Counted from the stretch's first letter, positions 30,566 through 60,862 are shown. The stretch: DNA of 64,000 nucleotides from an uncultured Thermoplasmata archaeon (GCA_963713145.1 CAVQKI010000002.1:119278-183277), one strand, 5' to 3'. Notes: generated by a model from the letters alone, not told the origin. Program-made: numbers and translations.

Positions 30566-31822
30566 ATGGGGCGGAAGGCGGGCGCGCCCACCCGACCGTT
30601 GCGATCTTGTCCTCATTCCAAGGAAGTGAAGCGCGGGTACCTCGCCGCCGTAGTTAGCGGTCTTGTGATCGCTGTGGGGATCCTTTTGGGAGCGGCCCCC
30701 CAAGGTCCCCTCCTTGCCGGAGCTACCCCTCCCATCATCTTGCCGGCCAGCGAAGGGGTGATTTCGAGCATTCCGGTGGGCGTCGGCCCGTCGGGATTAG
30801 CCTACGACAGCGGGTTGGGAGAAATCTTCGTTGCGAACGTCCTTTCTCAGGATCTCAGCGTGATTTCGGATTCGACCAACACCGTCGACGCGACGATCGG
30901 GGCCCCGGGTGTCGATCCCGCCGTCGCGTACGACGACGGTTTGGGCGAGATCTTCGTCGCGGTCTCCAGCCTGAGCCTCGTTAGAGTCCTTTCGGATTCC
31001 AACAACTCTCTCGTGGCCACGATTCCCGTGGGCCTCGACCCGGCCGGTCTGGTGTACGACAGCACGATTGGAGCGGTCTTCGTGACGGACCTGGGGGAGA
31101 ACAATGTGAGCGTCATTTCGCACGCCCTCAACACCGTGGTGGTGACGATTCCGGTGGGCCAGACTCCTAGAGCTATCGCGTTCGACAGCGGCCGAGGTGA
31201 GATCTTCGTCGCCAACACGGTGTCAAGCAACGTGAGCGTCATCTCAGACGCCACCTTCTCGGTCGTGGCCACGATTCCGGTGGGCGGAGAGCCAACGGGT
31301 CTGGCATATGACGGTGGGAAAGGCGAGGTCTTTGTAACGGACCAGTCGGCGGGGGGGCAGGTTAGCGTAATCTCGGATTCTAACAACTCTGTTGTGGCTA
31401 CGGTCCCGGTGGGCGGTACACCCTGGGGTCTGGCGTACGATGGCGGACTGGGCGAGGTGTTCGTCACAAACGAAGGCTCGAACAACGTCAGCCTGATCTC
31501 GGACAGGACGAACGCTGTCGTGGCGACCATCCCGGTGGGCCATCAGCCCGAGGCCGTAGTCTACGACAGCGGGAAGGCTGAGGTTCTTGTCGCAAACGCC
31601 GGCTCGAACACGGTCGGCTTCCTCGCTAATGAATCCTCCTCACCAGGCGGCGGAAGCGCCCCCGGACTCGCAGGACCCGACGGCTATGCCATCGGGGGAG
31701 GCATCGGGGTCGCTGCCGGAGTGCTAGTCGGGATAGGAGTCGGGTCCAGGCTCAGACGGGGACCGAGATCCGGCAACGCGGGGATGGACCGGCCCTTGTC
31801 ACCACCCCCAGGTCCTTCGTGA
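30566..31822 (+). CDS. YVTN-family beta-propeller surface protein 1
   Basis: ATG 30566 gives an N-terminal anchor (YLAAVVSGLVIAVGILLGA). About 8 repeats of the type GxxPxGLAYDxxxGEVFVxNxxSNNVSVISDxxNxVVATIPVG follow, then a C-terminal TM helix and a basic/Pro tail. Confidence 0.8.
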   Translation: MGRKAGAPTRPLRSCPHSKEVKRGYLAAVVSGLVIAVGILLGAAPQGPLLAGATPPIILPASEGVISSIPVGVGPSGLAYDSGLGEIFVANVLSQDLSVISDSTNTVDATIGAPGVDPAVAYDDGLGEIFVAVSSLSLVRVLSDSNNSLVATIPVGLDPAGLVYDSTIGAVFVTDLGENNVSVISHALNTVVVTIPVGQTPRAIAFDSGRGEIFVANTVSSNVSVISDATFSVVATIPVGGEPTGLAYDGGKGEVFVTDQSAGGQVSVISDSNNSVVATVPVGGTPWGLAYDGGLGEVFVTNEGSNNVSLISDRTNAVVATIPVGHQPEAVVYDSGKAEVLVANAGSNTVGFLANESSSPGGGSAPGLAGPDGYAIGGGIGVAAGVLVGIGVGSRLRRGPRSGNAGMDRPLSPPPGPS

Positions 31823-31994
31823 TGAAGGCAGGGGCGGCAACTCGGGTTCGTGGCCCAACGCGTGTACAACCATCTCTCAGGGAAGACCGAGAGACCGTCA
31901 ACTCGCCGGAAACCAGTGGTTTGTCAAACCAACGGACCCTCTCCCGAGAACCTGCGGGAAAGGAGGGTTGGCTCCGGTTCTCCGATTGGGCGGG

Positions 31995-33917
31995 TCAGCG
32001 TCGCCCGCCCCCCGGGGGCAATCCCACCTTGCGGCAGAAGTCCCCATAGCGAGGGTCCTTCCTCAACCGATCAAATGTCGGGTGGACCCCGATGAGATAC
32101 GGCCAGTTATGGCCCTTCGCGAGACCGGACAACGCGTCAAACGCTCCGTCGAGATCGCCCAGCGCTGCCCGAATATAGAGCTCAACGTGAGTCCCAGAGT
32201 ACTCGTCGGAATCCTTCTTCAATTCCCGGAGGACCTGCAACGCCTCCTTCCTTTTCCCGAGGAGGGCCCACAGAACTCCCAGGTCCCCCCGGAGGGACGC
32301 GTCGCGGGGGTGCGTCTTCAATCCCGCTTCGAGCACCGCGGTTGCCTTGGAAAAATCCCCGGTCAGGCGATAATACTCTGCCATGCCGTCACAGATTCGA
32401 GGGTCATGAGGATGCAATCGGTCAATTCGGCTTAGGATGCCAAGCGCCTCGTCGCCCCGACCGGCCAGCTGGGCCAACCACGCCAAATTCACGGCGACTC
32501 GGATTGCCAGAGGGTCGAGCTCGTGGGCCCTCTGGAAGGCGGCAAGACCTTCGTCGAGTCTGCCTATCGAGGCGCGCATCTGGCCCAGGGTCTCGTATGC
32601 TCCGCACAGGCTCGGGTTGATCTCGATTGCCCGCTGGGCTTCAGCAATCGCCTCCTCGAACCGATCCAGCATGGCATGAATCTCTGCCAACGCCGCATGA
32701 GCGTCCGCCGAATCGGGGGCCAGGGCGAGAGCCCTTCGAGCCGCGGGCTCAGCTTTGGCTATGCCGGAATCCCAGGCCGCCCAGCTCCCCGAGACCAGAC
32801 TGTTCCAGGCGCGAGCGAGACCCGCGTGAGCACGCGCGAAGTTGGGATCCCTTTCGATCGCGCGCTCAAACAGCCGGACAGCCTCCTTCAAGGTGACTTC
32901 CGAGTCCTCGTTCAGCAGCTGGAGCCCACGAAGGAAGAGGGTGTAGGCCTCCAGGTCCGGAGTATCGCCGAGGTTCGCCTTCCCGAACACACCCCTCTCG
33001 AGCGAGCCCGCGACATTCGTGGCCACATCGGCTTGGATTGCGAAGATGTCGTTCAACTCCCGGTCGTAGGTCTTCGCCCACAGGTGCCGTTCAGAGCCCA
33101 CATCAATCAACTGAGCCACGATCCGGAGCCGATTCCCGGCCTTGCGCACGCTCCCCTCGATGATGGAAGTAACACCCAGTTCCGCCCCTATCTGCGATAC
33201 CGTCTTGGTGGTCCCTTTGTATTGCATGATTGACGTGCGAGAGATCACTCGAACCTCTTTCAACCGGGAGAGCTCGGTGATCAGCTCTTCCGTAAGCCCG
33301 TTAGCAAAGTACTCGTCGTTGAGGTCGGGGCTGATGTTGGTGAACGGCAAGACGGCGAGGCCGTTAATCCCATCCCCCGCCCTCGAGCGCCCAGGACGGG
33401 GCCAGGGAAGTACAACGCGGTAGAGGTCAATGGGCGTCTTGACGTTCTTGAGTGAGGAACTCTCGAGCTTTTCGAACTGGCTCGGGACCTTGTTTCGGAC
33501 CTGATCAAACACGGCACTCGACACACAGACCCCACCCGGCGCTGCGCGCGGGCCAATTCGAGCGGCAATGTTTACCGCGTCTCCGAATATGTCGCGCCCC
33601 CGGCGTTCTACATCCCCGAGGTGCACCCCGATGCGAAGCTCGACGGGGGCGCCGCCTGACCGGGCATTGGGATCGCTCATTTGACGCTGGATTTCGATCG
33701 CGCATTCGGTCGCTTCTAAGGCGCTCCCGAATTCGATCAAGGACCCGTCTCCTGTCGATTTTATCTCCCGACCGTTGTAGGTCATAAGAATCGTTCGAAC
33801 GAGTTCTTCCTGCTCCTTGAGCAATCTCAGAGCGTCGGCCTCGTTGGCCTGGGCTGAGGTCGTGAATCCGACCAGATCGGTGAACATGATGGCCGCGAGC
33901 TTGCGAGTGGAGGCCAC
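31995..33917 (-). CDS. Class III adenylate/guanylate cyclase fused to TolB_N-like and TPR domains
   Basis: 640 aa. The cyclase core is AAIMFTDLVGFT ... STGDGSLIEF ... RIGVHLGDV ... DIFGDAVNIAARI. Then comes LAVLPFTNISPDLNDEYFANGLTEELITELSR (TolB_N-like), then multiple TPR-like helices to the C-terminus. Confidence 0.8.
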   Translation of the reverse strand: MASTRKLAAIMFTDLVGFTTSAQANEADALRLLKEQEELVRTILMTYNGREIKSTGDGSLIEFGSALEATECAIEIQRQMSDPNARSGGAPVELRIGVHLGDVERRGRDIFGDAVNIAARIGPRAAPGGVCVSSAVFDQVRNKVPSQFEKLESSSLKNVKTPIDLYRVVLPWPRPGRSRAGDGINGLAVLPFTNISPDLNDEYFANGLTEELITELSRLKEVRVISRTSIMQYKGTTKTVSQIGAELGVTSIIEGSVRKAGNRLRIVAQLIDVGSERHLWAKTYDRELNDIFAIQADVATNVAGSLERGVFGKANLGDTPDLEAYTLFLRGLQLLNEDSEVTLKEAVRLFERAIERDPNFARAHAGLARAWNSLVSGSWAAWDSGIAKAEPAARRALALAPDSADAHAALAEIHAMLDRFEEAIAEAQRAIEINPSLCGAYETLGQMRASIGRLDEGLAAFQRAHELDPLAIRVAVNLAWLAQLAGRGDEALGILSRIDRLHPHDPRICDGMAEYYRLTGDFSKATAVLEAGLKTHPRDASLRGDLGVLWALLGKRKEALQVLRELKKDSDEYSGTHVELYIRAALGDLDGAFDALSGLAKGHNWPYLIGVHPTFDRLRKDPRYGDFCRKVGLPPGGGRR

Positions 33918-34657: not shown

Positions 34658-36058
34658 ATGCGGAGCGCAATCGGGGCCACGGTGTTGATCGTGATGGCGA
34701 CGTTGGCTCTCAGCGTCGCTTCGGCGCACGCGAACGGCCCGCTCCCGCTTCCAGTAACGGTGCCCGCCGTCGGTCCGCCCGAAACGTCGATTCCGGTAGG
34801 GACCAATCCGATCGCCGTGGCGTTTGATCCCGCCACCGGCTCCGTTTACGTTGCCAACGAGGGATCCGACAACGTGACCGTGATCAACCCGATAACGAAC
34901 ACGGTCGCTGTTGCGTCGATCGTTGTCGGCACGGGCCCCATAGGCCTTGCCTACGATCCTACCAACGGGTATGTCTACGTCGCCAATCACCTTTCGGGGA
35001 ACATAACGGCAATCAACGGAAGGACAAACAGCGTCGCCGTCCCATCCATCTCCGTCGGGGCCGACCCCTGGGGGATCGCATTCGACAGTTCCAACGGCTA
35101 TCTTTACGTGGCCAACGAAGGTTCGGACAACGTGACGGTGATCAATGGCGCGACAAACGCGGTCGTCGTCCCTTCGATCCCGGTAGGAACGGAGCCGATT
35201 GGCATGACGTTCGACAGTTCCAACGGCTACGTGTACGTGAACAACTTTGGGTCGGGCAATGTAACGGTGATCAACGGGGCCACCAACAGGGTGGTCGTCC
35301 CTTCGATCACCGTTGGGACCGAAGACCAGTTTGGCTCTCTCGACCCGGTGAACGACACGCTCTTCATGTCCAGCTACACGGGCAACAACGTCACGGTGAT
35401 CAGCGCTGCCACCAACAAGGTGGTCGTTTCTTCGATCGCCGCGGGCAGCGGCCCTCGAGCTCTCGGGTTCGATACCCTGAACGGGTACGAGTACGTGGCC
35501 GACTGGGCTGGGAGTACAGTCACGGTCATTAATGCCGCGACCGGCGAGGACGTAGGTGCCGCGATTCCCACCGGGACCTACCCGTTCGGGATTGCTGTCG
35601 ACACGACGAACGGTTACGTGTATGTGCCGAACCAAGACTCGGATAACGTCACTGTCATCGCCCCCAGCTACGTGATCGGAAGCGGGTCCTCCGGAGGATC
35701 GGGCTCTTCGGCGTCGATCCTTGGCCTGAGCGGCGCGGGGGCGGATGTGGTGGTGGCTCTGCTCGTTGTGTGGGGTGTCGGGGGCACGGTCGCCGCGGTC
35801 GTCCTTTCAAGGAAGCACCGCGCGCCCGGAGAGCTCCACCCGGCGAGCCCCCCACTCCCCCCACCCCACCCCCTGGTTCTACCTAGTAGAACTGGTCCGA
35901 GAACATTCCCGGTGGGCAAGGGATTGGGGAGGGTCACCCTTCGCGCGGAGCGCGAGCGGGCGAGTCCGGCCCAAGCCCGTGTATCTCCTGTAGCGGTCCT
36001 TGGTCCAGAACCAGACCGGTTCTGTAGGGTCTACCCCGACGGGTACTTCGAGGCGTAG
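34658..36058 (+). CDS. YVTN-family beta-propeller surface protein 2
   Basis: ATG 34658 gives the signal peptide MRSAIGATVLIVMATLALSVASAHA. About 9 YVTN repeats follow (GxxPxGxAFDxxNGYVYVANxGSDNVTVINGxTNxVVxxI), then a Gly/Ser linker, a TM helix and a Pro-rich tail. The last ~60 codons are low-confidence. Confidence 0.8.
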   Translation: MRSAIGATVLIVMATLALSVASAHANGPLPLPVTVPAVGPPETSIPVGTNPIAVAFDPATGSVYVANEGSDNVTVINPITNTVAVASIVVGTGPIGLAYDPTNGYVYVANHLSGNITAINGRTNSVAVPSISVGADPWGIAFDSSNGYLYVANEGSDNVTVINGATNAVVVPSIPVGTEPIGMTFDSSNGYVYVNNFGSGNVTVINGATNRVVVPSITVGTEDQFGSLDPVNDTLFMSSYTGNNVTVISAATNKVVVSSIAAGSGPRALGFDTLNGYEYVADWAGSTVTVINAATGEDVGAAIPTGTYPFGIAVDTTNGYVYVPNQDSDNVTVIAPSYVIGSGSSGGSGSSASILGLSGAGADVVVALLVVWGVGGTVAAVVLSRKHRAPGELHPASPPLPPPHPLVLPSRTGPRTFPVGKGLGRVTLRAERERASPAQARVSPVAVLGPEPDRFCRVYPDGYFEA

Positions 36059-36123
36059 AGAAGGCGTGCCTTCCGTGAATTGAGGCCCCGACCTCCACGC
36101 CTAATCCCATCGAGGCCTCTCCC

Positions 36124-36891
36124 GTGGCGAGCTTCTCGATGCGTGCCAGCGGTGGAATTGCGCCTGCGTCAATCGCCGTCGGCGTTGCGCTTGGACTCGT
36201 CGTTTCACTGTTCGGGCTTTCAGGAAATTGGACCCCGTTCGAGCACACTGTCTGCAACACGGGATCGATCCTCTCGAATGAGCCCGATCGCTTCTTTCCG
36301 TCTGTTTTCGCGAACTCACCGTACGGCGGCTCTGCCGACGGCCAGAGTGGAGCATCCGGTGTAATCGTCGACAACGGGACGGCCGGAGCCGTCTTCCAAG
36401 AACGTGTCAACGCGAGCCTGTATTCAGCTCATAACTCGAGTTCGTGGGGGCCCGGAGTAAACGACCCCTGTGAAGGGCCGATGGCCCTGGTCCTGCAGGT
36501 GGATATCATTGGAGCCGGCACGGTGCTGGTTCCTACTGTCTCGAATCTGACCGATGCGGGCGAGGCTACCAACGTGTCAGCAGGAGACACACCCTTGAAC
36601 CTGTCCACTCTGGCGTTCTTCAACAATAGTTTCACGGGCGCGAACGCGGCGACCATCTCGACATGCGGTGGTGGCGCGTTAGAGCTCCCAGACCAAACCG
36701 CGCATCTCAAGGTCGGGATTCCATTCGACGTCCACGGTCAGACCGTTGTCGTACCGTACGAACTCCACGCGCTCGAGACTTTCTCCTACACGTTCCCCGC
36801 AAACTTCGGAACCTGGGCCGTCGACAATCTTTCCGAACCGGGAGGCCCTGGTGGTGGCTGGGCGTTTGACTACCTGGGTCCGTGTCTCTAA
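36124..36891 (+). CDS. N-terminally anchored secreted protein, unknown family
   Basis: 255 aa with an N-terminal helix (IAPASIAVGVALGLVVSLFGL) and many N-x-S/T sequons (NAS, NSS, NLT, NVS, NLS, NNS). I recognise no domain. Confidence 0.55.
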   Translation: MASFSMRASGGIAPASIAVGVALGLVVSLFGLSGNWTPFEHTVCNTGSILSNEPDRFFPSVFANSPYGGSADGQSGASGVIVDNGTAGAVFQERVNASLYSAHNSSSWGPGVNDPCEGPMALVLQVDIIGAGTVLVPTVSNLTDAGEATNVSAGDTPLNLSTLAFFNNSFTGANAATISTCGGGALELPDQTAHLKVGIPFDVHGQTVVVPYELHALETFSYTFPANFGTWAVDNLSEPGGPGGGWAFDYLGPCL

Positions 36892-36894
36892 CGG

Positions 36895-37482
36895 GTGGAT
36901 TGGATGAAGGCCGAGGCTGATGCCGCGGCACGAATCTTCGATCTCGAGTCCCTTAGGGCTGCGGACTACCCCCTCGCCAAGCGAGTGACGAGAGCGATCT
37001 TTCTCGTATTCGCTGCGGTTGTTGTAGCACTTGAGGTCCTACCTCCGCCGGCCGGATACACATCGAACACGCTTGCCGCCGATTCAGTCGGGGGAGCATT
37101 TGCAGTCCTGTCCTTGTGGGCATTCTTCGCCCTTGCCCCTGGGCCAGTCCGAATCCGAGTCGGCCCCTCGACAAGCCTTCTCGAGTATCAGAGCGGACGT
37201 GTCCGTGAGATTGACTTCAGGCGATCTGGGGTTCGCCTCAAGGCCCAGGTCTATCCGGACGATCTCCCCCCTCCATTGCACTATATTCTCGGGGGCCTCC
37301 CCTACTGGAACCCTATCTCTCGCGAAGCATTTGAGGAGCTTCTGACGAAGGCCCGGGACTTGGGCCTCCAGGTAAGTGAGCAAGACCTCGGTTCGGACAG
37401 CAGATGGGGCGTGACACCCAAATCCAAGCGAGTCCTCATATCAGGATCGCATAGTGCCGCTGTAGATTATTCAGCGCGATGA
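36895..37482 (+). CDS. Hypothetical two-helix membrane protein
   Basis: 195 aa. It starts 4 nt after the previous stop (GTG 36895 or ATG 36904). Helices: AIFLVFAAVVVALEVL and AFAVLSLWAFFALAP. Confidence 0.5.
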   Translation: MDWMKAEADAAARIFDLESLRAADYPLAKRVTRAIFLVFAAVVVALEVLPPPAGYTSNTLAADSVGGAFAVLSLWAFFALAPGPVRIRVGPSTSLLEYQSGRVREIDFRRSGVRLKAQVYPDDLPPPLHYILGGLPYWNPISREAFEELLTKARDLGLQVSEQDLGSDSRWGVTPKSKRVLISGSHSAAVDYSAR

Positions 37483-38243
37483 GTGTGTGCCGCCTGGGAA
37501 AGGAACGCCAATCGAGCTGACCCCCCGCTGTTTGGCGGATCTAAGATGGACGCACTCCAGACCAAACTAGGCACCCGAGGAGTGACTCGTCCACTCCCGG
37601 TTGAGCGACCCAGATGCGCTACGTCGACGAACCCCCTCGCTCGTAGTCATCGACGTCATGATTGTAATCGGCGTAGTAAGGGGTAGCTTGGCTACCCCTG
37701 AGCAGAGCTGCGCAAGACAAGAACAGAACCCCGCAGTTGGTGCAACGGTATCCGCCGGACCAAGCCATCCCTTGCAGAGTACCAGTGTACGACCCTCTCC
37801 CCCCAGGAGCGATTGTCGAGCATGACTCGTGCCACTTGTCTCCTACGACCGGCGACTCGGCCGCGGCTGACCCTGATTTAGCTGGGGACTTGCAGTTAGA
37901 ACAGGCGGGTTCCGGTGGCACTTCCCAGTGGAGCGAACTAGGCCTATTCTTGTTGGTGGCCGGGGGCAGACGGAACCGTGCCCATTGGATCAGTGAGGGG
38001 TGTCCTCTCCGGTGGCGAGCTGCATGGGGAGTAACCAGGATTTCGCGGCAACCATCCTACTCGTTCTTAGGGGCGCTAATGGGTACGGGCAGACCATTGC
38101 TCTGCATGATGGACATCGGGAATGCTCGATAGGACAGTGAGCTCTTATCGGGGGGCCCGGTACCCGACGGAGATAGCCCCCCTTCCCAAGAGCTGACGTG
38201 TCGCGACACCGACGGCGATGGGCCTACCGCGTAACTTAATGCC

Positions 38244-38688
38244 TTGTGTGACCATAAGATATGTGCCATGCAGCACCAAGCAGCCTGCCTAGCTCTGGGC
38301 GTCGCAGTTGGCATCATCATTGCTGGGGTCGCTGTCACGCTTGGAGGCAGGGCGGCATCGGCTCCTTGGTCGGTAGAAAGGGTCCTCTATCCTGCCGGAA
38401 CAATTCTCCTGGTCCCCGAGTCTCCATTGGCGACATTCGACGTGCCCTAGCCAAGGTGGAGTGCTAGTCGGCTCGGCCGCCGTTGACCATACGTCAGTTA
38501 CTCTTTGGGTCCTACCAGCAAATGTCTCGTTGTCTATAGGCTGTCCGGCGTACTCGGGGTACAACGGGACCGCATGGACTTACTCAGTGAATGAATCTCT
38601 TCAACCCGGCGCCTACGAGTGGGGCGCCGAGTGCGGTGGGTTTGCGAACGTTACGATTACGCAGCCGCTTGAGCTTCTGACCCCTTAG
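38244..38688 (+). pseudogene. Small anchored, sequon-rich protein read in two frames
   Basis: ORF 38244..38450 has an anchor helix (ACLALGVAVGIIIAGVAVTL). ORF 38461..38688 (another frame) has NVS, NGT, NES and NVT sequons and Cys pairs. Whether these are one gene is uncertain. Confidence 0.3.
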
Positions 38689-39138
38689 GATAATAGCGCG
38701 GCCGCGCGAGGGACGTGCGGTCCCGTGGTGGCGGAGTACTACGTCCCGCTCCCGCACAGCGGAGAGCAATCCGATTGGTGCCTCGACCAACGCTGTGGAC
38801 AATCCCACTCTTTCGAGATCGGTGAACTGGGTCACAAAGGATCGCTCGGGTAGTCGGCTGAGCCCTTGGGTTTCGGACGGGTGAGTCATTCTTCTTGATT
38901 CTGGTGATGGAATTGGATCCGATTTCGGACCCAACTCCGTCTGGTCGATTGACACCGGTTCTCAGCGCCGACGAATGAGTAACTGCGAGGGAAAGACGAG
39001 AGCGCTTGGCCAGGGTTCGACCCCCTAGATGCCTAGCCCTAGGGGCTTAGCTCGGCCCAAACGGTTCCCGGGTTGGAATTCCAAGCCAATCTCCCTCGTA
39101 TGTACTTGGAAGGCATCCCTCCGTCGAGGACATTCAAT

Positions 39139-40275
39139 ATGCAACCTTCAGCCATCGAACGTCCCACCTCCTTCGGCAGACCCTTCCGTCTTGCGAAGCC
39201 CCGCTTCCTGCCCAGAACTCTGATAGGAGCCGCTTTGATTGTGGCGGTCGCTATGCTCTCAAACGCAGCGTCGGCTGCGCAAACTGTACCGAACCAAGTG
39301 TTCGGCCCTCCGCCGCTACCTACCGGTGACTACGTCGACCTAGAATGCGTCCACGGCGAGATTACGCTGAATGGAACAAAGGCTTGCCTCGACCAAACCA
39401 TCGTCCAGATTTATTGGGGTCCCGCTGACGGCCACACGTATTGGTATTGGGTAGCTGCTGAGCCGGACTCGGGCTATGTTTTCCACAACTGGTCTGTCCC
39501 AGCAGGCGTCTGTCTGCCGCCCCCTGGGAGCTGTCATGGAACCTCCACGGTCGATCCTGTGAACCTCTCATCGAGCTGCCCGAATGGTCAACACTGCGGC
39601 TCTGGCACTGTAGTAGTCACGTTCGTGACGATTCCCACCCCGAAGACCCAGTATAACTGGGCGGGCTACCTAATAACCGGTTCCACTGGTAGTTTCATAC
39701 AGGTCTCAGGATCGTGGATTCAACCTTCAGTTTCATGCAACGCAACAAATGCTGACGCCTCAACTTGGGCTGGAATCGACGGCTATGTGACGTCAGGAAC
39801 GGGACCGATCCCTGAGCAGGGCGGTACAACCGCATGGTGCATAAGTGGCGCGGCAAGCTACGTCGCATGGTACGAGGACCCCCTCACGTCTGGTTTTGTC
39901 AACATAACGGGGTCCGGTTACACCGTCAAGGCGGGCGACAGAATCACTGCGAACGTTACATACAGTCCGAGCACAGGTTACTTCGTGATTACGGTTATGG
40001 ATAAGAATCAGAGCTGGAGCTACTCGCCCACGGCTTTCACTGATTCGGGAGCGCTGGAGAATTCGGCGGAGTGTATCACCGAGCGGGTTCTGTTGCCAGG
40101 GGGACCACACGACTACGGCTATCTGGCTGACATGGGCACAGCGAAATTCGGCCTTCATTACTCAGGCACATTTGGATGCAGTGCGAACGGGACCACCTCG
40201 TGGGGACCTTTCGGCGGCTTCAGAACTCTTACCGAAGTTGAAATGGTGAGCTATCCCTCCGGTTCCTCCCCCTAG
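39139..40275 (+). CDS. Peptidase G1 (eqolisin/scytalidoglutamic peptidase family) with an N-terminal Cys-rich extension
   Basis: Signal/anchor LIGAALIVAVAMLSNAASA. The G1 core is YNWAGYLITG ... STWAGIDGY ... IPEQGGT (candidate catalytic Gln) ... YVAWYEDP ... AGDRITANV ... SAECITER (candidate catalytic Glu). The preceding ~110 aa contain AEPDSGYVFHNWSV (InlB-B-repeat-like). Confidence 0.8.
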   Translation: MQPSAIERPTSFGRPFRLAKPRFLPRTLIGAALIVAVAMLSNAASAAQTVPNQVFGPPPLPTGDYVDLECVHGEITLNGTKACLDQTIVQIYWGPADGHTYWYWVAAEPDSGYVFHNWSVPAGVCLPPPGSCHGTSTVDPVNLSSSCPNGQHCGSGTVVVTFVTIPTPKTQYNWAGYLITGSTGSFIQVSGSWIQPSVSCNATNADASTWAGIDGYVTSGTGPIPEQGGTTAWCISGAASYVAWYEDPLTSGFVNITGSGYTVKAGDRITANVTYSPSTGYFVITVMDKNQSWSYSPTAFTDSGALENSAECITERVLLPGGPHDYGYLADMGTAKFGLHYSGTFGCSANGTTSWGPFGGFRTLTEVEMVSYPSGSSP

Positions 40276-40596
40276 CGATTCCCACTTCCCTCTCCTATAG
40301 CGGGACGAGTTTTACGGTAGTATGGTCTCAGGGGGCTTGAACTCACTTTCCTAGCAATCGACGTTGAGAGTTTCGGTGGCGGGATTGAATCGAGTGACTG
40401 ATGCGCTGGAATCGGGCCATTTCTGTGCATTGGCTCTCGCATACCGACAATTGGACCGTTTGCTGCGTAGGGGTTTGTCTAAGGCCCCCCTCGCCGGTTC
40501 ATCGGCACGCGCGCCAGGGGCAGCGGGAGATCTACCGAACCCCAGAGGGAAGGTTCAACTCTTGCCGACCTGATATCGAGGGCGGCGCGCCGGACG

Positions 40597-40620
40597 TAGG
40601 CTCAATCCATCTTGAGCCTA
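40597..40620. repeat. Intergenic palindromic motif, copy D (taggctcaatccatcttgagccta)
   Basis: A perfect 9-bp stem (taggctcaa/ttgagccta) with a 6-nt loop, between the G1 peptidase and the collagen-like gene. Confidence 0.5.
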
Positions 40621-40713
40621 CCGGCCGAAGATGAGCCGAGGGGACCTCAGGGTCGAGCCAGAGGACCAGACCCGCTAACCTAGGCCATTATCGGCAGGAC
40701 GTGATGCCGGGCC

Positions 40714-41352
40714 ATGGCCCCAGAAGTCGCCCTGAGACGAGTTAAGCGGAACGCGCGTGGCTGGAACCGGTCCGACCGACGGACCAGGGCGGCAATCGGG
40801 TTGGGGCATGTCGCCCTGATCCTCGGCGTCGTCGCGCTGGTCCTCGGCGGCACTGGCCTCGCGATCGCCCTCACGAACGGAGGCCATACCGGCTCTGCCG
40901 GAGCGCCGGGAGCCACCGGCGGCACTGGACCCGCCGGACCCGGAGCGGTGGTCAACCATACATACTTTGACTCAGGGCAGCTCCTGACGGCAGGCTGCGC
41001 ATTCTATTCCGGGGCAAACATCAGCCTGACGGCCGCAGGTCCCGGAACGTTCGTCGTGACGGCTTCCATAGAGCTCTTCATTACCCACACCTACGCGAAT
41101 TACTCCTCATACGCCGTGGGGCTCGCGAACGCTTCAGCGTCGTGCTCCTTCCTCATCGGTAGCTACGCTACTGGCTACATGTCGTCCGTAGCCCCTTCGG
41201 ACGGCTACTACGCTGACTATGCTCTGGGCGAGAACTTTGCGGCCGGAGCGGCCGGCACTTACACGTTCGGGATCATCGGCAGCGTCAGTTCGGGGGTGGA
41301 CCCGATTGAGTTCTACTGGTCCAGCGTCTCGGTGGAGTTCTACCCTGCGTAG
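40714..41352 (+). CDS. Type II membrane protein with a short collagen-like G-X-Y stretch and a ~130-aa C-terminal domain
   Basis: Basic N-terminus, a helix (AAIGLGHVALILGVVALVLGGTGLAIAL), then GHT GSA GAP GAT GGT GPA GPG (7 triplets), then a beta-rich domain ending TYTFGIIGSVSSGVDPIEFYWSSVSVEFYPA. Confidence 0.6.
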   Translation: MAPEVALRRVKRNARGWNRSDRRTRAAIGLGHVALILGVVALVLGGTGLAIALTNGGHTGSAGAPGATGGTGPAGPGAVVNHTYFDSGQLLTAGCAFYSGANISLTAAGPGTFVVTASIELFITHTYANYSSYAVGLANASASCSFLIGSYATGYMSSVAPSDGYYADYALGENFAAGAAGTYTFGIIGSVSSGVDPIEFYWSSVSVEFYPA

Positions 41353-41568: not shown

Positions 41569-41591
41569 GGGCTCAACTCATGTTGGAACCC
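41569..41591. repeat. Intergenic palindromic motif, copy E (gggctcaactcatgttggaaccc)
   Basis: Near-identical core to copy B. It lies ~220 nt downstream of the stop at 41352. Confidence 0.45.
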
Positions 41592-41912
41592 GAACTCGAG
41601 CCGATCGAGGGTCCAACCCGTGTTGCACGCATCGCAGGACATCCGTCGTGTGAGATCCCTCTTCGCCCTTTCGCGCCGCGCGGTATCGGGCGGACACCCC
41701 AGGGCCCTCGGCCCACTCCGCCTCTTGAAACACGATTCGAGGGGCCGTTCGCAGGTTAGAGGCCATTCCGGCGGCGAGACGCGATCGGATCGTCAACCGG
41801 AGGCAGCGATTTCCAATTTCACGACCAAACATATTTCAAGGGGGTCCCGATGCATCCGGGTGCAGGCTGGAGTCCCCGAGGGAGTTTTCCGACCTGCGCA
41901 GTGAGACGACAG

Positions 41913-48027: not shown

Positions 48028-48199
48028 TTTCTATCCGTTCGCCTCTTGATCCGAAACATCGACCCGAACGGGCGTAGATGAACCGTTCCTGAACGCGATT
48101 CAAGTCGAATGGGCTTGAAGGCCCACGGCGTATCGACCGTCGGCCCCGCCCGTTCTTCCGTAGCAGCGGCGCATGGCGCGCCGGAAAAGACCCTATTGC

Positions 48200-52386: not shown

Positions 52387-52814
52387 ATGAAAGCTAGAAC
52401 GGCGGCGCGCTGCTACCGGTGCGGGTACTGACTGGTACCCGAGGAAGGCGCGAGTCCGGATGTGTGCGAAGTGCAAGTCGCCGGTACTTCGACCTCCCGA
52501 AGCTCCAGATCCCGTCGTACGGTTCGGGCCTGGGCATTCAGGACATCATCGGATCGAAGCGAGTCAGGATCCTCAGACTCGCGGAAAGATACGGGGCAAG
52601 AAACGTCCGCGTCTTCGGTTCGGTCGCCCGGAAGGAGGCAACTGGGGCGAGCGACCTGGACCTCCTGGTCGACCCTGTCCGCGCAAGATTCGACCCCATC
52701 AGCCTCTCGCTCAGCCTCCAGAAGGTTCTTGGTCGGGACGTCGACGTCGTTTCGGAGAGATCGCTACACTGGTTCGTCCAGCCCCAGGTCGTGGCCGAGG
52801 CGGTTCCGTTGTGA
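52387..52814 (+). pseudogene. Zinc-ribbon fused to a minimal nucleotidyltransferase (MNT antitoxin-type), two frame changes
   Basis: Hand translation gives three segments. ATG 52387 gives MKARTAARCYRCGY, then a stop. The next frame gives DWYPRKARVRMCAKCKSP. The next frame gives YFDLPKLQIPS...RVRILRLAERYGARNVRVFGSVARKEATGASDLDLLVD (GS...DxD NTase motif; ORF 52419..52814). The junctions are at ~52430 and ~52480. Confidence 0.65.
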
Positions 52815-53156
52815 GCGGGGATCGAACGAAGGAACGACTTTCGCTGGCGACCGAGCACCTCCAGATTGCCATCGAATACTCTCGACGGGGTCGGTCGACC
52901 TTCTTTGACCCGGATACTTCCGGATACGCTGCGCCTCGTAGAGAGCGAACTCCGAAAGGCTTACGAGTCCCTCAACCGCCTCGGCGACCCGTTCTACCAC
53001 GCTAACCCGGGGATGCCGCGAGAGAGAATTGGGGAGGTCCGGCAGGCCCTGACCCTTGACTATTCGGACGTCGACTCCGAGGAGTTGTGGCGGCTCGTTA
53101 CAGAAGAGGCTCCACGGCTTTTGCGTCGGCTCGCTCGGATCCGAGCTCCGCCGTGA
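52811..53156 (+). pseudogene. HEPN (DUF86) toxin-type protein, frame-disrupted and lacking the Rx4-6H histidine
   Basis: GTG 52811 overlaps the MNT stop (GTGA). The N-terminus RTKERLSLATEHLQIAIEYSRRGRSTFFDPD is in one frame. LRLVESELRKAYESL...IGEVRQALTLDYSDVDSEELWRLV is in the next (ORF 52866..53156). The junction coincides with ccggatac repeated at 10-bp spacing (52908-52927). Where DUF86 has R-N-x-x-x-H-x-Y, this reads R-Q-A-L-T-L-D-Y. Confidence 0.65.
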
Positions 53157-55637: not shown

Positions 55638-55786
55638 CGACAGACCGGAGCCGTGCGCCCAGATAAGCCGGGCGACCGCGGCGAGCGGCTCTTCCCAGGC
55701 GACCGCTACCTCCGGCCCGAACGACAGGCTGGGGGTACCCGGAAAGCTCATCCCGCAGTCACCGGTGACTCGACCCGGAGCTCCTG

Positions 55787-56444: not shown

Positions 56445-57122
56445 ATGGCCCTCGCCGCGGGCTTCGCGGCGGGCCTGGTCTATCTCGTCCTGCTCGTCGC
56501 CGACTACAACGCGATGACCGCGTTCGCCTGGTCGGTCACCTCACTGTCCCTGATCCTCTCCGTCGTGGGCGCGTTCGCCCTGTCGACCATGCTCGGATCG
56601 GACATCTCGAACTACCAGCGCCTCGAGCTCGACCTGGCCCGGACCGCGCTCGCATACGTCGGGTCCGGTTCCGCGCCCACGCCTGAGAGCCCCCTCGCAG
56701 GAGTTTGGAGGGCGTACGTCGGCGCCTCCGAGGAGTCCCGCCGGGTCGCTCGGGCGCACGCGTATGGCCTGGGGCTGTTCATCCGAGCGGGCATGATCTC
56801 CCTCGCGGCGGTGCTGCTGGCCGCCCTGGGGTTCCTTACTTCCACGCAGAACGTGCTTGGCCTGGCCATGCTCGTGGAGCTGTTCGCCTTCTTCTTCCTG
56901 ATCGTGGGCGCGGGTGCGCTGGTCGCGACCGTCGGCTTTTCCGCGCCGGTGCCGGGATACGAGATGTTCGCGGCCCGACGCTGGAAGCGCAATTCCGGTC
57001 GGGCCGAGGCGGTGCGAACGTCGTTCGCGGACATCCCGTGGCTCGCGGAGTTCGTCCGCGGGGCCGGGGAGAGCCACCTCGACCCGACGGGCCCCTCCGT
57101 TCTGCCGAGCTGGCGCGAGTAA
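56445..57122 (+). CDS. Polytopic membrane protein, unknown function
   Basis: From internal ATG 56445 of ORF 56232..57122, with four to five helices (LAAGFAAGLVYLVLLV, LILSVVGAFALSTML, MISLAAVLLAALGFL, LVELFAFFFLIVGAGALVA). Confidence 0.5.
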   Translation: MALAAGFAAGLVYLVLLVADYNAMTAFAWSVTSLSLILSVVGAFALSTMLGSDISNYQRLELDLARTALAYVGSGSAPTPESPLAGVWRAYVGASEESRRVARAHAYGLGLFIRAGMISLAAVLLAALGFLTSTQNVLGLAMLVELFAFFFLIVGAGALVATVGFSAPVPGYEMFAARRWKRNSGRAEAVRTSFADIPWLAEFVRGAGESHLDPTGPSVLPSWRE

Positions 57123-57253
57123 GCTGGCACCGACGGAACTCGCCCGGGGCTTCTCCCGCCCTAGGCGTCCTCAGTCCAGCGCGGAGACCCGGCGAGGAGA
57201 ATCGAGACAAACGACTAAGAGGGGGTCCTCGGGGTACCAAGTCCCGGGCCACC

Positions 57254-60200
57254 GTGACGCGGAACCTACTTTCGTTGGGCGCGATCGTCGTCGTAGCGAT
57301 TTTCCTCCTGACCACCACCGCTGTGCCGGCGGGTGCCCATCCTGTGGGCGCCCTTAGTTCGGGAGACCACAGTCCAGGCCTGCCGCTCTCTGCAGCCGCC
57401 GCGCCCACAGCGCCTAGAGCCCCGGCCACAGACGCGGTCCAGAAGAGCCAGGCAGCCGAGAGGGCCACGGAAGCCCAGAAGGTTCCCACGGGACTGTACC
57501 ATCCCCCCGATTTCTCCGCGGAAGGGGTGCGTCCCCGCGGACCCGTCGCCCCAACCTATACGGCGGCCCCGGCACCGATGGGCGTCGCGGACCTGGGGCT
57601 GAGGAACTCCGCCGGGACCCTGGTGCCCTACATCCTCAACTCTACCAGCGTGGAGGGGACGATCTCGCTGACCTCGGCCCAATCGGCGTACGTTGACGGG
57701 GACGGACCGGATACCTTCGGAATCCAGCTGAACGCCGTCGCGACGAACGTGACCCTGTTCGGCAACTCGAGCTACGAATTCTGGACCCAGGACTTCGTGA
57801 GCTACACGTCGAGCTCGGGTCAGCTCACCTTCGGCGATAACGTCTGGAACTTCTCGGACCTGGCGGGCCTGTTCCCCTCGAACGCGATCTACTCGCACGG
57901 CGCGAACGGCACTCTGGTCGCGCCGGAGGACTACTACGCGAGCGGCCCGGCCTTCACGGTTCGCTACCCGTTCACCGTCACATTCTTCCTCAACGCGACG
58001 ACCGTGGCGGACCGTCCGGCGATCTACTTCAACTACTCGTTGACCTCCCCGTCCGTTACGAGCCACGCCGGGTCGTTTGACTTCGTGGTGTTCAATTCGA
58101 CCGCTACGACGCCCCTCGACCCGGCCGCGGTGCCCATGTTCCAGGTGAACGGGGCGTCCTACGACCCTACCGGACTCCTGAACGACGTCGAGCTCGTCGT
58201 GGTGGGCAACGGAGGCGGGGACACGACCACGTTCTTCTTGATGAAGGCGACGCTGACCATCGAATTTTGGAACGAATCGGGTGGCGGTTACCAGCGGTTT
58301 CCCTCGGCCTACGATGCGGGCTCCGATACCGGAGAAACCAGCGATGGGATTGACGTCTCGTTCAACGCATCCATCCTCGGCAATCCGATCCCGATCGCGA
58401 ACCTCGACCTCGGACCGTCGTTCCTCTACGGCCTCTGGAACGCCTCCACGAATCCGGGCTCTCGGATCCTCAGCCTAACCCAATCCCCCGCGAACGCGTT
58501 CCTTTTCGTGAACTCGGGAGCCACGTTCAAGCCTCTGGACGCCCAATGGGTCCCGACCGCCCTGCTCGCGACCGCCGGAGCGATGTCCGTGTACTTCCCG
58601 AACAAGGGCACGTACTTCTTCGAGTGGCTTCTGAGCGATTACCGTTCTACCGGAAAGGCGTTCACCGTCCTGCAGGCTCCTAACAACCTCACCACCGCGG
58701 TGAGCACGACGCTCGTCTCGGCCACCGGCCAGGGGGTCTATACCCCGCTCCTCGCCTGGGGCAACGCCGAGCTTGGTGCGATCGTCTCGTCCGGGAACGG
58801 GACCAACGCGAGCCCGTACAACCTGGAGAACGCCGCTCCATCCCAGCTCGGAGCGGAGTTCACCCAATGGAACGATTTCGAGTTCCCGGTCTTTCCGGGG
58901 GTCCTCCTGATCGGGACGACCGACTGGGTCCGCGCCACTCCGGCCGGATTCGCGATCACCTACCCCGCCGTCGTGGCTCCGACGCTGGCCTCCCTAGGCC
59001 TCCCCTCTTCGAACCACCTCCAGCTGGAGTTCTGGGGAGTCTCGAACCTCAGTCTTTCGAATGCCCCTCTGATCACGGGCTGGATCTCCTCGAACTTCGG
59101 CGGGTACCCCGCGGCCGCCGCGACGTTCTGGGACTCCAGTAACAACCTCATCTCCGGCAACACCTTCCTGGACCAGGGGGCTTCGCTCGCTCTCTACGGA
59201 GGGACGAACAACACCGTATGGGGGAACTCGTTCCTGCCCACCCCCGTGGCGGCCTCGAACCAGACCGCGATCCAGGACTCCGGGAACAATACGACCGGGA
59301 TCCTTGAATCGGAGTCCGGCGACCTCGTCTTCAACAACTACTTCACCGTCCCCCAGACCGCCTACACCCCGACCATCGACCCGTTCTCCTGCCAGTACAT
59401 CTGCACCGCCGTTGCCTACTCGGACCGCTGGAACGTCAGCCTGGAGCCCGCCAACGACACCCAGACGGTCCTGGGCCGCGTGTTGACGGGGAGCATCATC
59501 CTCACGTCGTACCAGGGCGGCAACTACTGGTCGAACTACGGAACGACCTCGGACCCTTACGGGATCCTGCCGTACAACGATGCCGGCCGGATCTCGAACG
59601 GGGGCGACTACTACCCCCTCATCCCGTTCTCGCTCTACTCGGTCACGTTCAGCGAGACGGGCCTCGCGCTCGGGGCCGCGGACTGGGGCGTGTCGGCCGT
59701 CGGGCTGAACCAGTCCGCGGCGCCCGGCGCGACCATCACCGTGTTCGCCCCGAACGGCACGTACAACTTCTCGGTGGTCATTCCGGCCGGTTACACGGTC
59801 ACGGCTCCCGCCAACTTCACGGTCGAGGGGGCCAACGTTTCGGTCGACCTCACGTTCTTGCCACTGCTACCGCTCGAATTCATCGAGACGGGCCTCGCTG
59901 AGAGCTGGAGCTGGACAGTCAACCTGACGCCGCTAGCCCTTGGACAGTCGAACGTAACGGGAACCTCGACCAACGGAACGGAGACGTTCGCGCTCGTCGC
60001 GGGGTCGTATCTCTACAACATCACGTCCACGGGGTACAACGCAACCCCCGCCACGGGGACCGTTCTGGTGGCGAGCGGGATCCCTGCGATCGACGTTGCG
60101 TTCTCGCTGGTACCGATCCTCGAAGTCAACGAGACCGGCCTGCCGGCGGGCGTTGCATGGACCGCGGCCATTCACGATGGTTCGAGCTGGTCGAACAAGA

Positions 60201-60862
60201 CGTCCGTTGGGACCCAGATCAACTTCTTCATCTTCGACCTCGCCCCCGGTGCCTACACCTGGCATATCTCGGCGACGAACTACACCGCAACGCACCGCTT
60301 CGGCCACGGGACCTCCCCGACCCCGACCTGGGTCTCGACCACCTTCTCGATCCTGCTGGGCACGCTCGCCGGCTCCGTCAACGCGCCTTCCGCGACCTTG
60401 ACGATCGACGGGAACTCGGTCCCGGTCACCAACGGGACGTTCTCGGTCCAGCTTGGCGCCGGCGTGCACGCGATCTTTGTGACCGCGGCGGGCTACGAGC
60501 CGTACTACAACAACGTGACCGTCGTTGGCGGCACCACGACCAACTTCACGATCCAGATGAACGCCGCGCCCGGTCCGTTGCCGGGGTTCCTCGGCATTCC
60601 GCTGTTCGGGTGGGCGCTCATCGCTGCGCTCGCGCTGGTCGCGCTGATCCTGCTCGTGGTCGCGTTGACCCTCCGACGCCGGGGCGGTACCCCTCCGCCC
60701 GTGGCCGCCTTCAAATCGGTCCGGCCGGCCGCCCCGGTCTCTGCCGCCGCAGCTCCGGCAGCCGCCCCGCCCGCCCCGAAACCCTCCGCGCCGGCAGCGC
60801 CCCCGGCCCCCCCCGCGTGGAGCGAGGACTCCTCCGAGGCCCCGTGGAGCGAGGGCAACTAG
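57254..60862 (+). CDS. Thermopsin (peptidase A5) fused to a beta-helix region, three FxETGL repeats and a C-terminal anchor
   Basis: GTG 57254 gives VTRNLLSLGAIVVVAIFLLTTTAVPAGA. The A5 hallmarks are APAPMGVADLGL, FGIQLNAV, YEFWTQDFVSY and FGDNVWNFS. A mid-region has NLISGNTF / NNTVWGNSF beta-helix-like turns. From 59636 come YSVTFSETGLALGAADWGV, LEFIETGLAESWSWTV and LEVNETGLPAGVAWTA. The gene ends with LPGFLGIPLFGWALIAALALVALILLVVAL-RRRGG and an Ala/Pro tail. The frame is intact over 3.6 kb. Confidence 0.85.
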   Translation: MTRNLLSLGAIVVVAIFLLTTTAVPAGAHPVGALSSGDHSPGLPLSAAAAPTAPRAPATDAVQKSQAAERATEAQKVPTGLYHPPDFSAEGVRPRGPVAPTYTAAPAPMGVADLGLRNSAGTLVPYILNSTSVEGTISLTSAQSAYVDGDGPDTFGIQLNAVATNVTLFGNSSYEFWTQDFVSYTSSSGQLTFGDNVWNFSDLAGLFPSNAIYSHGANGTLVAPEDYYASGPAFTVRYPFTVTFFLNATTVADRPAIYFNYSLTSPSVTSHAGSFDFVVFNSTATTPLDPAAVPMFQVNGASYDPTGLLNDVELVVVGNGGGDTTTFFLMKATLTIEFWNESGGGYQRFPSAYDAGSDTGETSDGIDVSFNASILGNPIPIANLDLGPSFLYGLWNASTNPGSRILSLTQSPANAFLFVNSGATFKPLDAQWVPTALLATAGAMSVYFPNKGTYFFEWLLSDYRSTGKAFTVLQAPNNLTTAVSTTLVSATGQGVYTPLLAWGNAELGAIVSSGNGTNASPYNLENAAPSQLGAEFTQWNDFEFPVFPGVLLIGTTDWVRATPAGFAITYPAVVAPTLASLGLPSSNHLQLEFWGVSNLSLSNAPLITGWISSNFGGYPAAAATFWDSSNNLISGNTFLDQGASLALYGGTNNTVWGNSFLPTPVAASNQTAIQDSGNNTTGILESESGDLVFNNYFTVPQTAYTPTIDPFSCQYICTAVAYSDRWNVSLEPANDTQTVLGRVLTGSIILTSYQGGNYWSNYGTTSDPYGILPYNDAGRISNGGDYYPLIPFSLYSVTFSETGLALGAADWGVSAVGLNQSAAPGATITVFAPNGTYNFSVVIPAGYTVTAPANFTVEGANVSVDLTFLPLLPLEFIETGLAESWSWTVNLTPLALGQSNVTGTSTNGTETFALVAGSYLYNITSTGYNATPATGTVLVASGIPAIDVAFSLVPILEVNETGLPAGVAWTAAIHDGSSWSNKTSVGTQINFFIFDLAPGAYTWHISATNYTATHRFGHGTSPTPTWVSTTFSILLGTLAGSVNAPSATLTIDGNSVPVTNGTFSVQLGAGVHAIFVTAAGYEPYYNNVTVVGGTTTNFTIQMNAAPGPLPGFLGIPLFGWALIAALALVALILLVVALTLRRRGGTPPPVAAFKSVRPAAPVSAAAAPAAAPPAPKPSAPAAPPAPPAWSEDSSEAPWSEGN

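Follow-up and report, generated by a model that had tools for sequence, protein, structure and literature searches.

Does a stretch of archaeal chromosome crowded with genes for anchored extracellular proteins and acid proteases encode one dedicated envelope system, or is it a place where such genes accumulate? The question is raised by a span of about 30 kb in a 64,000-nucleotide stretch of DNA from an uncultured Thermoplasmata archaeon (GCA_963713145.1, CAVQKI010000002.1:119278-183277; hereafter the window). The window is C2:119278-183277 of genome G000, a metagenome-assembled genome (MAG) of 2.05 Mb in 7 contigs, 74% complete and 66-69% GC, and the span studied lies at 30.5-60.9 kb within it; positions given here without a contig name are counted from the first base of the window. 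An initial annotation had read the span as a dedicated locus in which propellers, Ig arrays and a DUF3494 protein capture substrates or surfaces while two peptidases digest protein outside the cell. Our analysis indicates that it is probably a flexible, mosaic stretch of chromosome that accumulates lineage-expanded families of surface glycoproteins rather than a dedicated machine. It would then be an island of a known kind, its members most likely acting as independent coat components and extracellular acid proteases.

The host is like the Lutacidiplasmatales, acid-soil Thermoplasmata with a GC content of ~69% and genomes of ~2.1 Mb, whose prevalent extracellular peptidases are S53, thermopsin and A4 (PMC9287336); it is placed there by GC, genome size, habitat and protease repertoire rather than by phylogeny. 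The congeners used for comparison are uncultured soil Thermoplasmata MAGs, among them G007 ('Thermoplasmata archaeon isolate MFD09222.bin.1.12'), which comes from the Nanopore-based Microflora Danica survey (PMC12313526).

A concentration of anchored surface-protein genes

Three YVTN propeller proteins, a giant repeat protein, a DUF3494 protein, a G1 glutamic peptidase, a thermopsin fusion, a collagen-like Gly-X-Y protein and several small orphans had been listed as members of the island, and all are present at or near the places where they had been put (Table 1). Anchored or secreted genes cover ~61% of the bases of the span. Using a hydrophobicity and sequon scan for anchors, helices and N-glycosylation sequons, on a crude home-made gene call that covers 80% of the genome and counts split genes twice, we found that the span ranks first of 372 overlapping 30-kb windows, with 6-7 genes that are anchored or rich in sequons, where the mean is 1.05 (standard deviation 1.17). 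The best 30-kb window elsewhere in the assembly holds four. The description of a ~30-kb island dominated by anchored extracellular proteins is thus borne out.

Table 1. Features of the span, in window coordinates (aa, amino acids; TM, transmembrane; ORF, open reading frame; GC3, GC content at third codon positions)
Feature	Position	Strand	Description
YVTN beta-propeller surface protein 1 (YVTN1)	30566..31822	+	N-terminal anchor, C-terminal TM helix, RLRRGPR...PPPGPS tail
Class III nucleotide cyclase + TolB-like + TPR protein (cyclase-TPR)	31995..33917	-	Cytoplasmic; Guanylate_cyc and TPR Pfam matches
YVTN beta-propeller surface protein 2 (YVTN2)	34658..36058	+	TM helix, long Pro-rich tail
Low-GC block	36047..40415	+	GC 0.55-0.62, GC3 0.61-0.67, z -4 to -5; holds orph36124, orph36895, 139-aa ORF, G1
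orph36124	36124-36891	+	Small anchored orphan, in low-GC block
orph36895	36895-37482	+	Small orphan, one paralogue in own genome, in low-GC block
139-aa N-anchored ORF	38244-38688	+	Split here at 38445 C-run; intact in another assembly (L117)
G1 (eqolisin) glutamic peptidase	39139..40275	+	N-terminal anchor/signal, Cys-rich pre-domain, Gln227/Glu315; true end probably ~40340
Type II anchored Gly-X-Y protein	40714..41352	+	Seven Gly-X-Y triplets (GHTGSAGAPGATGGTGPAGPG tract), beta-rich head
Giant surface protein	41850..46801	+	1,651 aa when joined; Trp-rich repeats, Ig-like repeats, TM helix, basic/Pro tail
DUF3494 (ice-binding-like fold) anchored protein	47129..48030	-	Three-frame reading; PF11999 fragment match
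Alpha/beta hydrolase	48200..48952	-	Cytoplasmic; non-haem haloperoxidase-like; Pfam
YVTN propeller 3 (YVTN3)	49279..52033	+	Fused to ~85-aa FxESGLP stalk repeats; TM helix, Pro-rich tail
MNT nucleotidyltransferase / HepT-like toxin-antitoxin pair	52419..53156	+	NTP_transf_2 E 7e-7, HepT-like E 1e-4; unrelated to envelope
Multi-pass membrane protein (memb53382)	53382-54038	+	tblastn vs L112
Orphan gene orf54118	54118-54957	-	tblastn vs L112
Glyoxalase	55242-55751	-	Cytoplasmic; Pfam
MOSC-domain protein	55787-56293	+	Cytoplasmic; Pfam
Four-helix membrane protein	56445..57122	+	Start of conserved backbone; GC3 0.89
Thermopsin (A5) fusion	57254..60862	+	1,202 aa; signal/anchor, thermopsin domain, NosD-like beta-helix, FxESGLP, PEGA, TM helix, Ala/Pro-rich tail

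The large proteins have a common ending, a C-terminal helix followed by a basic, Pro-rich tail. N- and/or C-terminal helices followed by K/R-rich residues were scored in YVTN1, the last third of the giant, YVTN3 and the thermopsin fusion; for YVTN2 and the DUF3494 protein, the C-terminal anchor was read from the sequence. Sequon density in the large proteins is 1.4-4.1 per 100 aa, against a genome median of 0 and a 95th percentile of 1.97. The scan and the sequence reading together uphold the anchors, sequon density and TM-plus-tail architecture claimed for these products, and the anchored proteins are plausibly envelope components.

All three propellers score above the TIGR02276 cut-off of 27.85 bits: YVTN1 (30626-31822; E 1e-47, 159 bits, with a YNCE Pfam match, 6 sequons and a GC3 of 0.74), YVTN2 (34658-36058; E 7e-47, 157 bits, with Lactonase/YNCE Pfam matches) and YVTN3 (50039-52033; E 1.5e-8, 34 bits, with 27 sequons), the last bearing a stalk repeat common to the thermopsin fusion. 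The giant has seven Ig-like Glucodextran_B/Big_13 repeats in its C-terminal third (Pfam), and its intact orthologues include proteins of 1,625 aa (88% identical) and 1,567 aa (75%), plus others. The gene for the DUF3494 protein is split, and its window fragment reaches 22.1 bits with PF11999, under the 28.7 cut-off; the orthologue on contig L111 (70-90% identical) carries PF11999 in a precomputed table. The DUF3494 homologue of G007 has FxESGLP stalk repeats in place of a direct anchor. For the Gly-X-Y protein (40714-41352), a 48% homologue lies near the giant orthologue on contig L112, and an identical copy is found on L117, a contig from another assembly.

These families recur throughout the genome. 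By tblastn against its own genome, the archaeon has 16-17 YVTN loci, 9 with a thermopsin domain, ~30 with the FxESGLP repeat and 5 for the cyclase-TPR protein, together with 6 loci for orph36124, 4 for the Gly-X-Y protein, 3 for DUF3494 and 2 for G1. Other surface clusters lie at C1:670-697 kb, C5:15-27 kb and C6:126-168 kb.

Mosaic layout and scattered homologues

Both strands of the span are used, unrelated cytoplasmic genes are interleaved with the surface-protein genes, and gaps reach up to 1.6 kb, with non-coding or degraded stretches at 37.5-39.0 kb and around 52-53 kb. Only YVTN2, orph36124 and orph36895 are close-packed (66-nt and 3-nt gaps). Codon usage is a patchwork as well. Against a genome GC3 of 0.86 +/- 0.05, the span forms at least four GC3 blocks, with values of 0.73-0.76 at 29.6-36 kb, 0.61-0.67 at 36.05-40.4 kb, 0.80-0.85 for the giant, DUF3494 and hydrolase genes, 0.74-0.78 from YVTN3 to orf54118 and 0.85-0.90 from 56.4 kb on.

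We mapped synteny by searching the genomes of relatives with concatenated protein queries. Orthologue-level synteny of the span was absent in ten congeners, where homologues were scattered or missing. In the 2-contig assembly of G007, for example, homologues are spread from 1.165 Mb (hydrolase) through 1.408 (thermopsin), 1.430 (OFeT) and 1.508 (K+ channel) to 2.037 Mb (a G1-like gene). Searches of six to ten congeners gave no match for the Trp-repeat region of the giant, the Gly-X-Y protein or orph36895. The initial annotation had held that its reading would fall if the gene neighbourhood were not kept in relatives, and this lack of a conserved neighbourhood is largely what we found.

The right flank behaves differently from the left. 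Its genes (the four-helix membrane protein through OFeT, R1, R2, R4 and R6) are kept in G003, G007, G010 and G001, and homologues of the membrane protein lie 4-6.5 kb upstream of OFeT in G003, G008 and G004. On the left, no relative has a collinear flank, and the island is therefore not bracketed. In the window, the backbone runs membrane protein, thermopsin, K+ channel (an RCK-type gene directly after thermopsin), orf62122, OFeT, R1; in G003 it runs membrane protein, phosphoribosyltransferase, malic enzyme, orf62122, OFeT, R1, without thermopsin or K+ channel. Thermopsin therefore occupies a variable slot. In G003 (L105, C2:17001-30000), where this slot holds the phosphoribosyltransferase and an NAD-malic enzyme, the region upstream of the conserved membrane protein carries genes for a GHMP kinase, an epimerase and a GT2 glycosyltransferase that may serve in glycan synthesis. 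Right next to R6, R4, R2 and OFeT, G007 carries five YVTN and four thermopsin loci between 1.335 and 1.411 Mb; in G010, loci for G1-like, orph36124-like, YVTN and thermopsin proteins lie no more than 100 kb from these backbone genes. The location seems to be kept while its content turns over.

The six contigs with giant orthologues (L111 to L116) give a finer view. The closest of them, with giants 75-88% identical, retain a few neighbours, and at 66-69% the neighbours are paralogue-level or unrelated. On L111 the order is YVTN (minus strand), glyoxalase, giant, DUF3494 (minus strand); on L112 it is TMEM175, ANT, methyltransferase, giant, memb53382, YVTN, orf54118 (minus strand), Gly-X-Y protein, with memb53382 and orf54118 69-70% identical to the window copies. 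The neighbours on L113 and L116 are essentially unrelated. L114 has a different hydrolase and a cyclase-TPR protein 45% identical, and L115 has a YNCE propeller, a thermopsin (37%), a cyclase and the giant in a row on one strand; at 37-45% identity, these L114 and L115 neighbours are paralogue-level and not orthologues. Judged from these alignments, the neighbourhood is partly common to the nearest relatives, as descent predicts, and beyond them only family-level neighbours of paralogue grade recur.

The two acid proteases

The G1 peptidase (39073-40275) matched PF01828 (Peptidase_A4/G1) with E 8e-20 and 71.5 bits, against a cut-off of 22.3. A phmmer search of the PDB with the single protein gave no match; a profile of the protein and nine relatives matched 1y43_B (aspergillopepsin II, 1.5e-19) and 1s2b_A (scytalidopepsin B, 1.3e-15). 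In the alignment, its Gln227 and Glu315 fall on the catalytic dyad of aspergillopepsin II (heavy-chain Q24 and E110); the dyad is intact. The protein thus resembles the scytalidoglutamic and aspergilloglutamic peptidases (MEROPS G1; 1s2b, 1y43) in profile and in its Gln/Glu pair. It differs from these enzymes in ~110 extra Cys-rich N-terminal residues with an anchor or signal, in its archaeal host and in the foreign-looking low-GC block that holds the gene. A related-loci search with the G1 protein found nothing, and a word search gave only 10 relatives.

The thermopsin fusion (56705-60862) matched PF05317 over profile positions 6-255 of 256 (E 3e-58, 197.6 bits), with further NosD and PEGA matches. 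It has 37 sequons, and its best relatives are 49-52% identical. As in SsMTP and SsMTP-1 of Sulfolobus solfataricus (PMC3958906) and in family A5 (Rawlings 2013, PMC3842238), a thermopsin domain is followed by large extra domains and several paralogues exist; unlike SsMTP, the fusion has a C-terminal TM anchor and NosD-like, FxESGLP and PEGA modules. The nine thermopsin loci of this 74%-complete genome compare with a maximum of seven reported in 2013 (PMC3842238). SsMTP, SsMTP-1 and thermopsin are extracellular and acid-active (PMC3958906, PMC3842238). The catalytic residues of family A5 are unknown (PMC3842238), so the activity of the fusion cannot be judged from its sequence. Both families had been described as pepstatin-insensitive, which holds for the G1 enzymes and for SsMTP-1 (PMC3958906, PMC3842238) but not for thermopsin itself, which pepstatin inhibits competitively with a Ki of ~1e-7 M (PMC3842238).

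The two families are not genomically linked across the lineage. PF01828 occurs in 27/61 genomes of the order, all within one family and with 1-7 copies each, and is absent from the other 34; thermopsin-like matches were found in 25/31 relatives and are near-universal in the genus. Among ~30 G1 loci in 12 G1-bearing genomes, two lie within 10 kb of a thermopsin domain, where ~1 is expected by chance. Both belong to G056, in which a G1 gene lies 4-10 kb from each of its two thermopsins. In the window, the G1 and thermopsin genes are 17.6 kb apart and in separate compositional blocks.

A dedicated system, or chance

Several observations count against a mere accumulation of surface genes. YVTN genes lie within 10 kb of giant orthologues on 4/6 contigs, above simple chance. 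Together with the one-strand row of propeller, thermopsin, cyclase and giant on L115, this makes some selection for proximity possible. A mini-cluster at C5:15.6-25 kb repeats a YVTN gene, a G1 paralogue (split), a YVTN gene with FxESGLP and an orph36895-like gene, and the density statistics carry the weaknesses of the gene call described above.

The L115 row, the pairing of YVTN and G1 in the C5 mini-cluster and the G1 genes close to both thermopsins of G056 also speak for an envelope system that is dedicated and co-regulated, with capture of substrates or surfaces by the propellers, Ig arrays and DUF3494 and digestion by G1 and thermopsin. So do the real local density of anchored proteins and the stalk and anchor architecture common to unrelated heads. 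Set against them are the lack of an operon layout, the interleaving of unrelated genes, the codon-usage mosaic, the absence of orthologous synteny in congeners, the paralogue-level identity of the L114 and L115 neighbours, a G1 family that is patchy in the order beside a thermopsin family near-universal in the genus, a proximity of the two that is close to chance, and four other cyclase paralogues without surface-gene neighbours. In short, surface-gene enrichment, mosaic composition and a tRNA gene and mobile or selfish elements close by, as expected of a flexible island, are all present; orthologue-level neighbourhood, co-directional tight spacing and family co-occurrence, as in an operon-like system, are all missing. 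We therefore consider a dedicated system quite unlikely. Of the capture-and-digest proposal, what survives is a local concentration that is real and non-random, with neighbours that recur at family level; what does not survive is a co-inherited locus, given genes on both strands, interleaved and mosaic, with scattered homologues and a G1 family unlinked to thermopsin.

Pure coincidence is very unlikely. The families are numerous, ~70-120 surface-protein genes in 2 Mb could give one dense window by chance, the gene call is crude, and split genes raise the counts. However, the Poisson tail is ~1e-4 per window, or ~0.01 after ~68 independent windows (computed by hand). Across the genome, 72 sequon-rich genes have another no more than 5 kb away, where shuffling the labels gives 51.8 +/- 6.7 (p 0.002; split genes raise the count somewhat), and the clustering holds with the island removed (p 0.001). 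The YVTN and thermopsin concentrations of G007 and G010, which lie beside the same backbone, also argue against chance. An accumulating island accounts best for the span.

Frame breaks and probable consensus errors

Several members of the island are broken in frame, as the initial annotation had noted. The giant is read in three frames, with single extra bases at 42839 (CAGTAC/C) and 44781 (G/GTAC). Compared with the intact orthologues on L111 and L112 (85% nucleotide identity), it has exactly two indels of a length not divisible by three over 4.95 kb. YVTN3 is split by one extra G at TTCGGTACC (~50013), and the DUF3494 gene has a TAG at 47704-47706 (GTAG; L111 has TAC) and a 1-nt deletion near 47375. 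In the DUF3494 gene of L111 (9830-9850), a 1-nt deletion lies 5 nt from the site of the window's TAG, just after the GFPPG motif, and the in-frame TAG of the G007 homologue falls on another codon. The TAC (Tyr) of L111, the displaced TAG of G007 and the nearby L111 deletion led us to reject programmed recoding as an explanation of the stop.

A coding-potential switch detector, which recovered three known breaks within ~20 nt, gave 59 candidate frame breaks genome-wide (29 per Mb), 45 of them in ordinary genes that are not sequon-rich. The tetramer GTAC lies within 10 nt of 20/59 candidate breaks, against 3.8 expected (p 3.6e-10), and none of 15 other 4-mer palindromes was enriched near them. 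Four of the five main lesions in the window touch GTAC. Three other assemblies of essentially the same sequence are 99.3-99.9% identical to the window, and they differ from it mainly at GTAC (12/32 and 5/14 differences) or at C-runs. One position that follows a GTAC carries three different bases among the assemblies. These assemblies, with L117 among them, restore the 139-aa ORF (C-run at 38445) and extend G1 by 22 C-terminal residues that complete the fold (C-run at 40268).

Nanopore errors left uncorrected are known to give rise to spurious pseudogenes (PMC8011154), and a recent preprint reports systematic miscalls caused by base modifications (bioRxiv 10.64898/2026.01.14.699587). The pattern suggests that GTAC is a methylated motif that causes systematic consensus errors. 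The frame breaks are probably long-read consensus errors at this modified motif and at C-runs rather than marks of dead genes, and the genes are accordingly to be taken as intact. GTAC-linked errors may also help explain the 74% completeness of an assembly in only seven contigs. Of the statement that several members are frame-disrupted, the breaks themselves stand, and the disruption looks like an assembly effect.

That the span is instead a decaying graveyard of surface-protein pseudogenes is highly improbable. At least seven lesions lie within 30 kb, candidate breaks are ~2-fold over-represented in sequon-rich genes (14/59 against 10.7% of coding length), and insertion sequence (IS) elements and a broken sulfatase lie nearby. 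Yet every lesion is a single-base one, the giant has no other non-triplet indel and its orthologues are intact, breaks are enriched at GTAC and fall mostly in ordinary genes, and other assemblies mend both the 139-aa ORF and the G1 C-terminus; dead genes with unrelated histories, which the initial annotation would have counted against itself, are not indicated. Equally improbable is a mis-assembly that fused pieces from different strains or organisms of the bin into a chimera, for which the codon-usage mosaic, the incomplete MAG and the start of contigs from three other assemblies at ~36.05-36.07 kb might speak, since L117 is continuous over 36069-41941, through the right edge of the low-GC block and into the giant, L111 and L112 independently back the adjacency of giant and DUF3494 and of giant, memb53382, YVTN and orf54118, and the right end joins a backbone collinear with G003.

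Other genes of the span and its flanks

The low-GC block has no direct or inverted repeats of at least 9 nt at its ends and no integrase, and one assembly reads past its right edge. It was rejected as a bounded mobile element and stays a compositional block only. Two near-identical contigs from two ENA assemblies (L109 and L110) cover exactly 36047-40415, and L117 begins at 36069, which points to a recurrent assembly-graph junction directly after the YVTN2 stop codon. The shared breakpoint of these three assemblies is a slight hint of strain-level variation at the island.

One gene in this block, orph36124, belongs to a Thermoplasmata family of at least 72 clusters with no Pfam or NCBIfam model. 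Its members are secreted, sequon-rich proteins of ~250 aa with the invariant C-terminus FGTWxVDNLSxPGGPGGGWAFxYLGPC. Paralogues in the own genome include C6:129253, C1:415230, C2:199746 and C3:64876. An AlphaFold model built with 66 sequences is all-beta and confident (pLDDT 93.4, pTM 0.81), against a pLDDT of 41 with 4 sequences only; Foldseek found no neighbour of the model in the PDB or BFVD (best E 0.02, TM-score ~0.1). A homologue follows a YVTN gene at 3-4 of the six own-genome loci. A conserved YVTN-orph36124 two-gene module nonetheless does not hold in general, as the homologues in four other genomes are not adjacent to YVTN and have different neighbours, often transposases.

The cyclase-TPR family has five copies in the own genome and at least ten in congeners. 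In G001, G003 and G007, the cyclase, TolB-like and TPR combination is expanded to at least ten copies per genome at 50-63% identity, an unusually large family of cyclic-nucleotide (cNMP) signalling proteins for an archaeon. A role as dedicated regulator of the surface genes is unsupported, since the four other paralogues have no sequon-rich neighbours. The hydrolase (48200-48952) is 78-84% identical across soil MAGs of Acidobacteriota, Verrucomicrobiota, Dormibacterota, Nitrososphaerota and Thermoplasmata (506 relatives); this identity across phyla suggests a recent and wide spread, and the gene has probably moved among soil organisms by horizontal transfer.

Upstream of the span lie IS630-type DDE_3 genes at 8190-8702 and 19289-20350 (one partial), a sulfatase gene in two pieces (1232-2499) and an ANT gene, and a tRNA-Gln is found at C2:117251-117344, 2 kb ahead of the window. 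No integrase and no flanking repeats were detected around the island. A direct repeat of ~430 nt (82-90% identity) occurs at 11498-11925 and 27379-27805; its copies, 15.9 kb apart, enclose a segment with transporters, TMEM175, ANT, IS630 and a lactonase-like propeller.

Discussion

The domain order of the large products suggests a common plan, in which a Sec-type signal or anchor at the N-terminus is followed by an extracellular head, a beta-sandwich stalk, a C-terminal TM helix and a short basic, Pro-rich tail that would lie in the cytoplasm. The head would be formed by a YVTN propeller, by Trp-rich repeats, by a DUF3494 solenoid or by a thermopsin domain with a beta-helix, and the stalk by Ig-like, FxESGLP or PEGA repeats, with many candidate N-glycosylation sites on all. 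Each large protein would act on its own in the cell coat. For the thermopsin fusion and the G1 peptidase, the predicted role is digestion of external protein at low pH for peptide uptake.

The comparisons indicate that the region was assembled piecemeal. The low-GC cassette of 4.4 kb probably delivered the G1 gene, the bacterial-type hydrolase and the MNT/HepT pair were probably inserted, with IS630 copies upstream, and unrelated heads have stalk repeats in common. Thermopsin and the K+ channel fill the variable slot in the backbone between the membrane protein and OFeT. The region appears to be a hot spot that keeps its location as its content changes.

The closest comparison is the cell-wall-associated island of Haloquadratum walsbyi (2015, PMC4535781), with the flexible or 'metagenomic' surface islands. 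Both are archaeal chromosomal regions rich in surface-glycoprotein genes, with unrelated metabolic genes and mobile remnants interspersed. In the span, as in that island, content differs among relatives while the location seems to be kept, and diversity would arise by recombination and mobile elements. Unlike the H. walsbyi island, the span has no S-layer or glycan-biosynthesis genes and includes acid proteases in its cargo, and its variation was seen in comparisons among species of one genus and with a few metagenome contigs rather than within one population. Among the terrestrial Thermoplasmatota, including the Lutacidiplasmatales, which likewise have high-GC acid-soil genomes of ~2 Mb, thermopsin and A4 (G1) with signal peptides have been reported to be the most prevalent extracellular peptidases, and have been linked to low-pH adaptation and peptide use (Sheridan et al. 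2022, PMC9287336). That study gives presence per genome and reports no physical clustering with propeller or Ig-repeat proteins (PMC9287336).

A further reading, which we regard as unlikely, is that acid-soil Thermoplasmata have a selected, modular hot spot for a surface toolkit of propeller, giant and acid protease, sometimes with a cyclase-TPR protein. This combination would be the one seen in the window, on L114 and L115 and in the C5 mini-cluster, with the position beside OFeT kept and cassettes swapped without a recognisable integrase. If this were true, populations could vary their coat and their extracellular digestion together.

On the preferred reading of an accumulating island, a striking gene cluster need not mean a system: this one is a patchwork, and its proteases are unlinked across the lineage. 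The tracking of 'broken' genes by GTAC is a practical lesson that may weigh more than the island itself, and pseudogene calls, completeness estimates and recoding claims on this MAG and on similar long-read MAGs need motif-aware checks. Sequence is the sole source of knowledge about the envelope and feeding apparatus of the soil and peat Thermoplasmata, an abundant and uncultured group; a correct inventory of their anchored glycoproteins and acid proteases aids the planning of proteomics and enzyme work.

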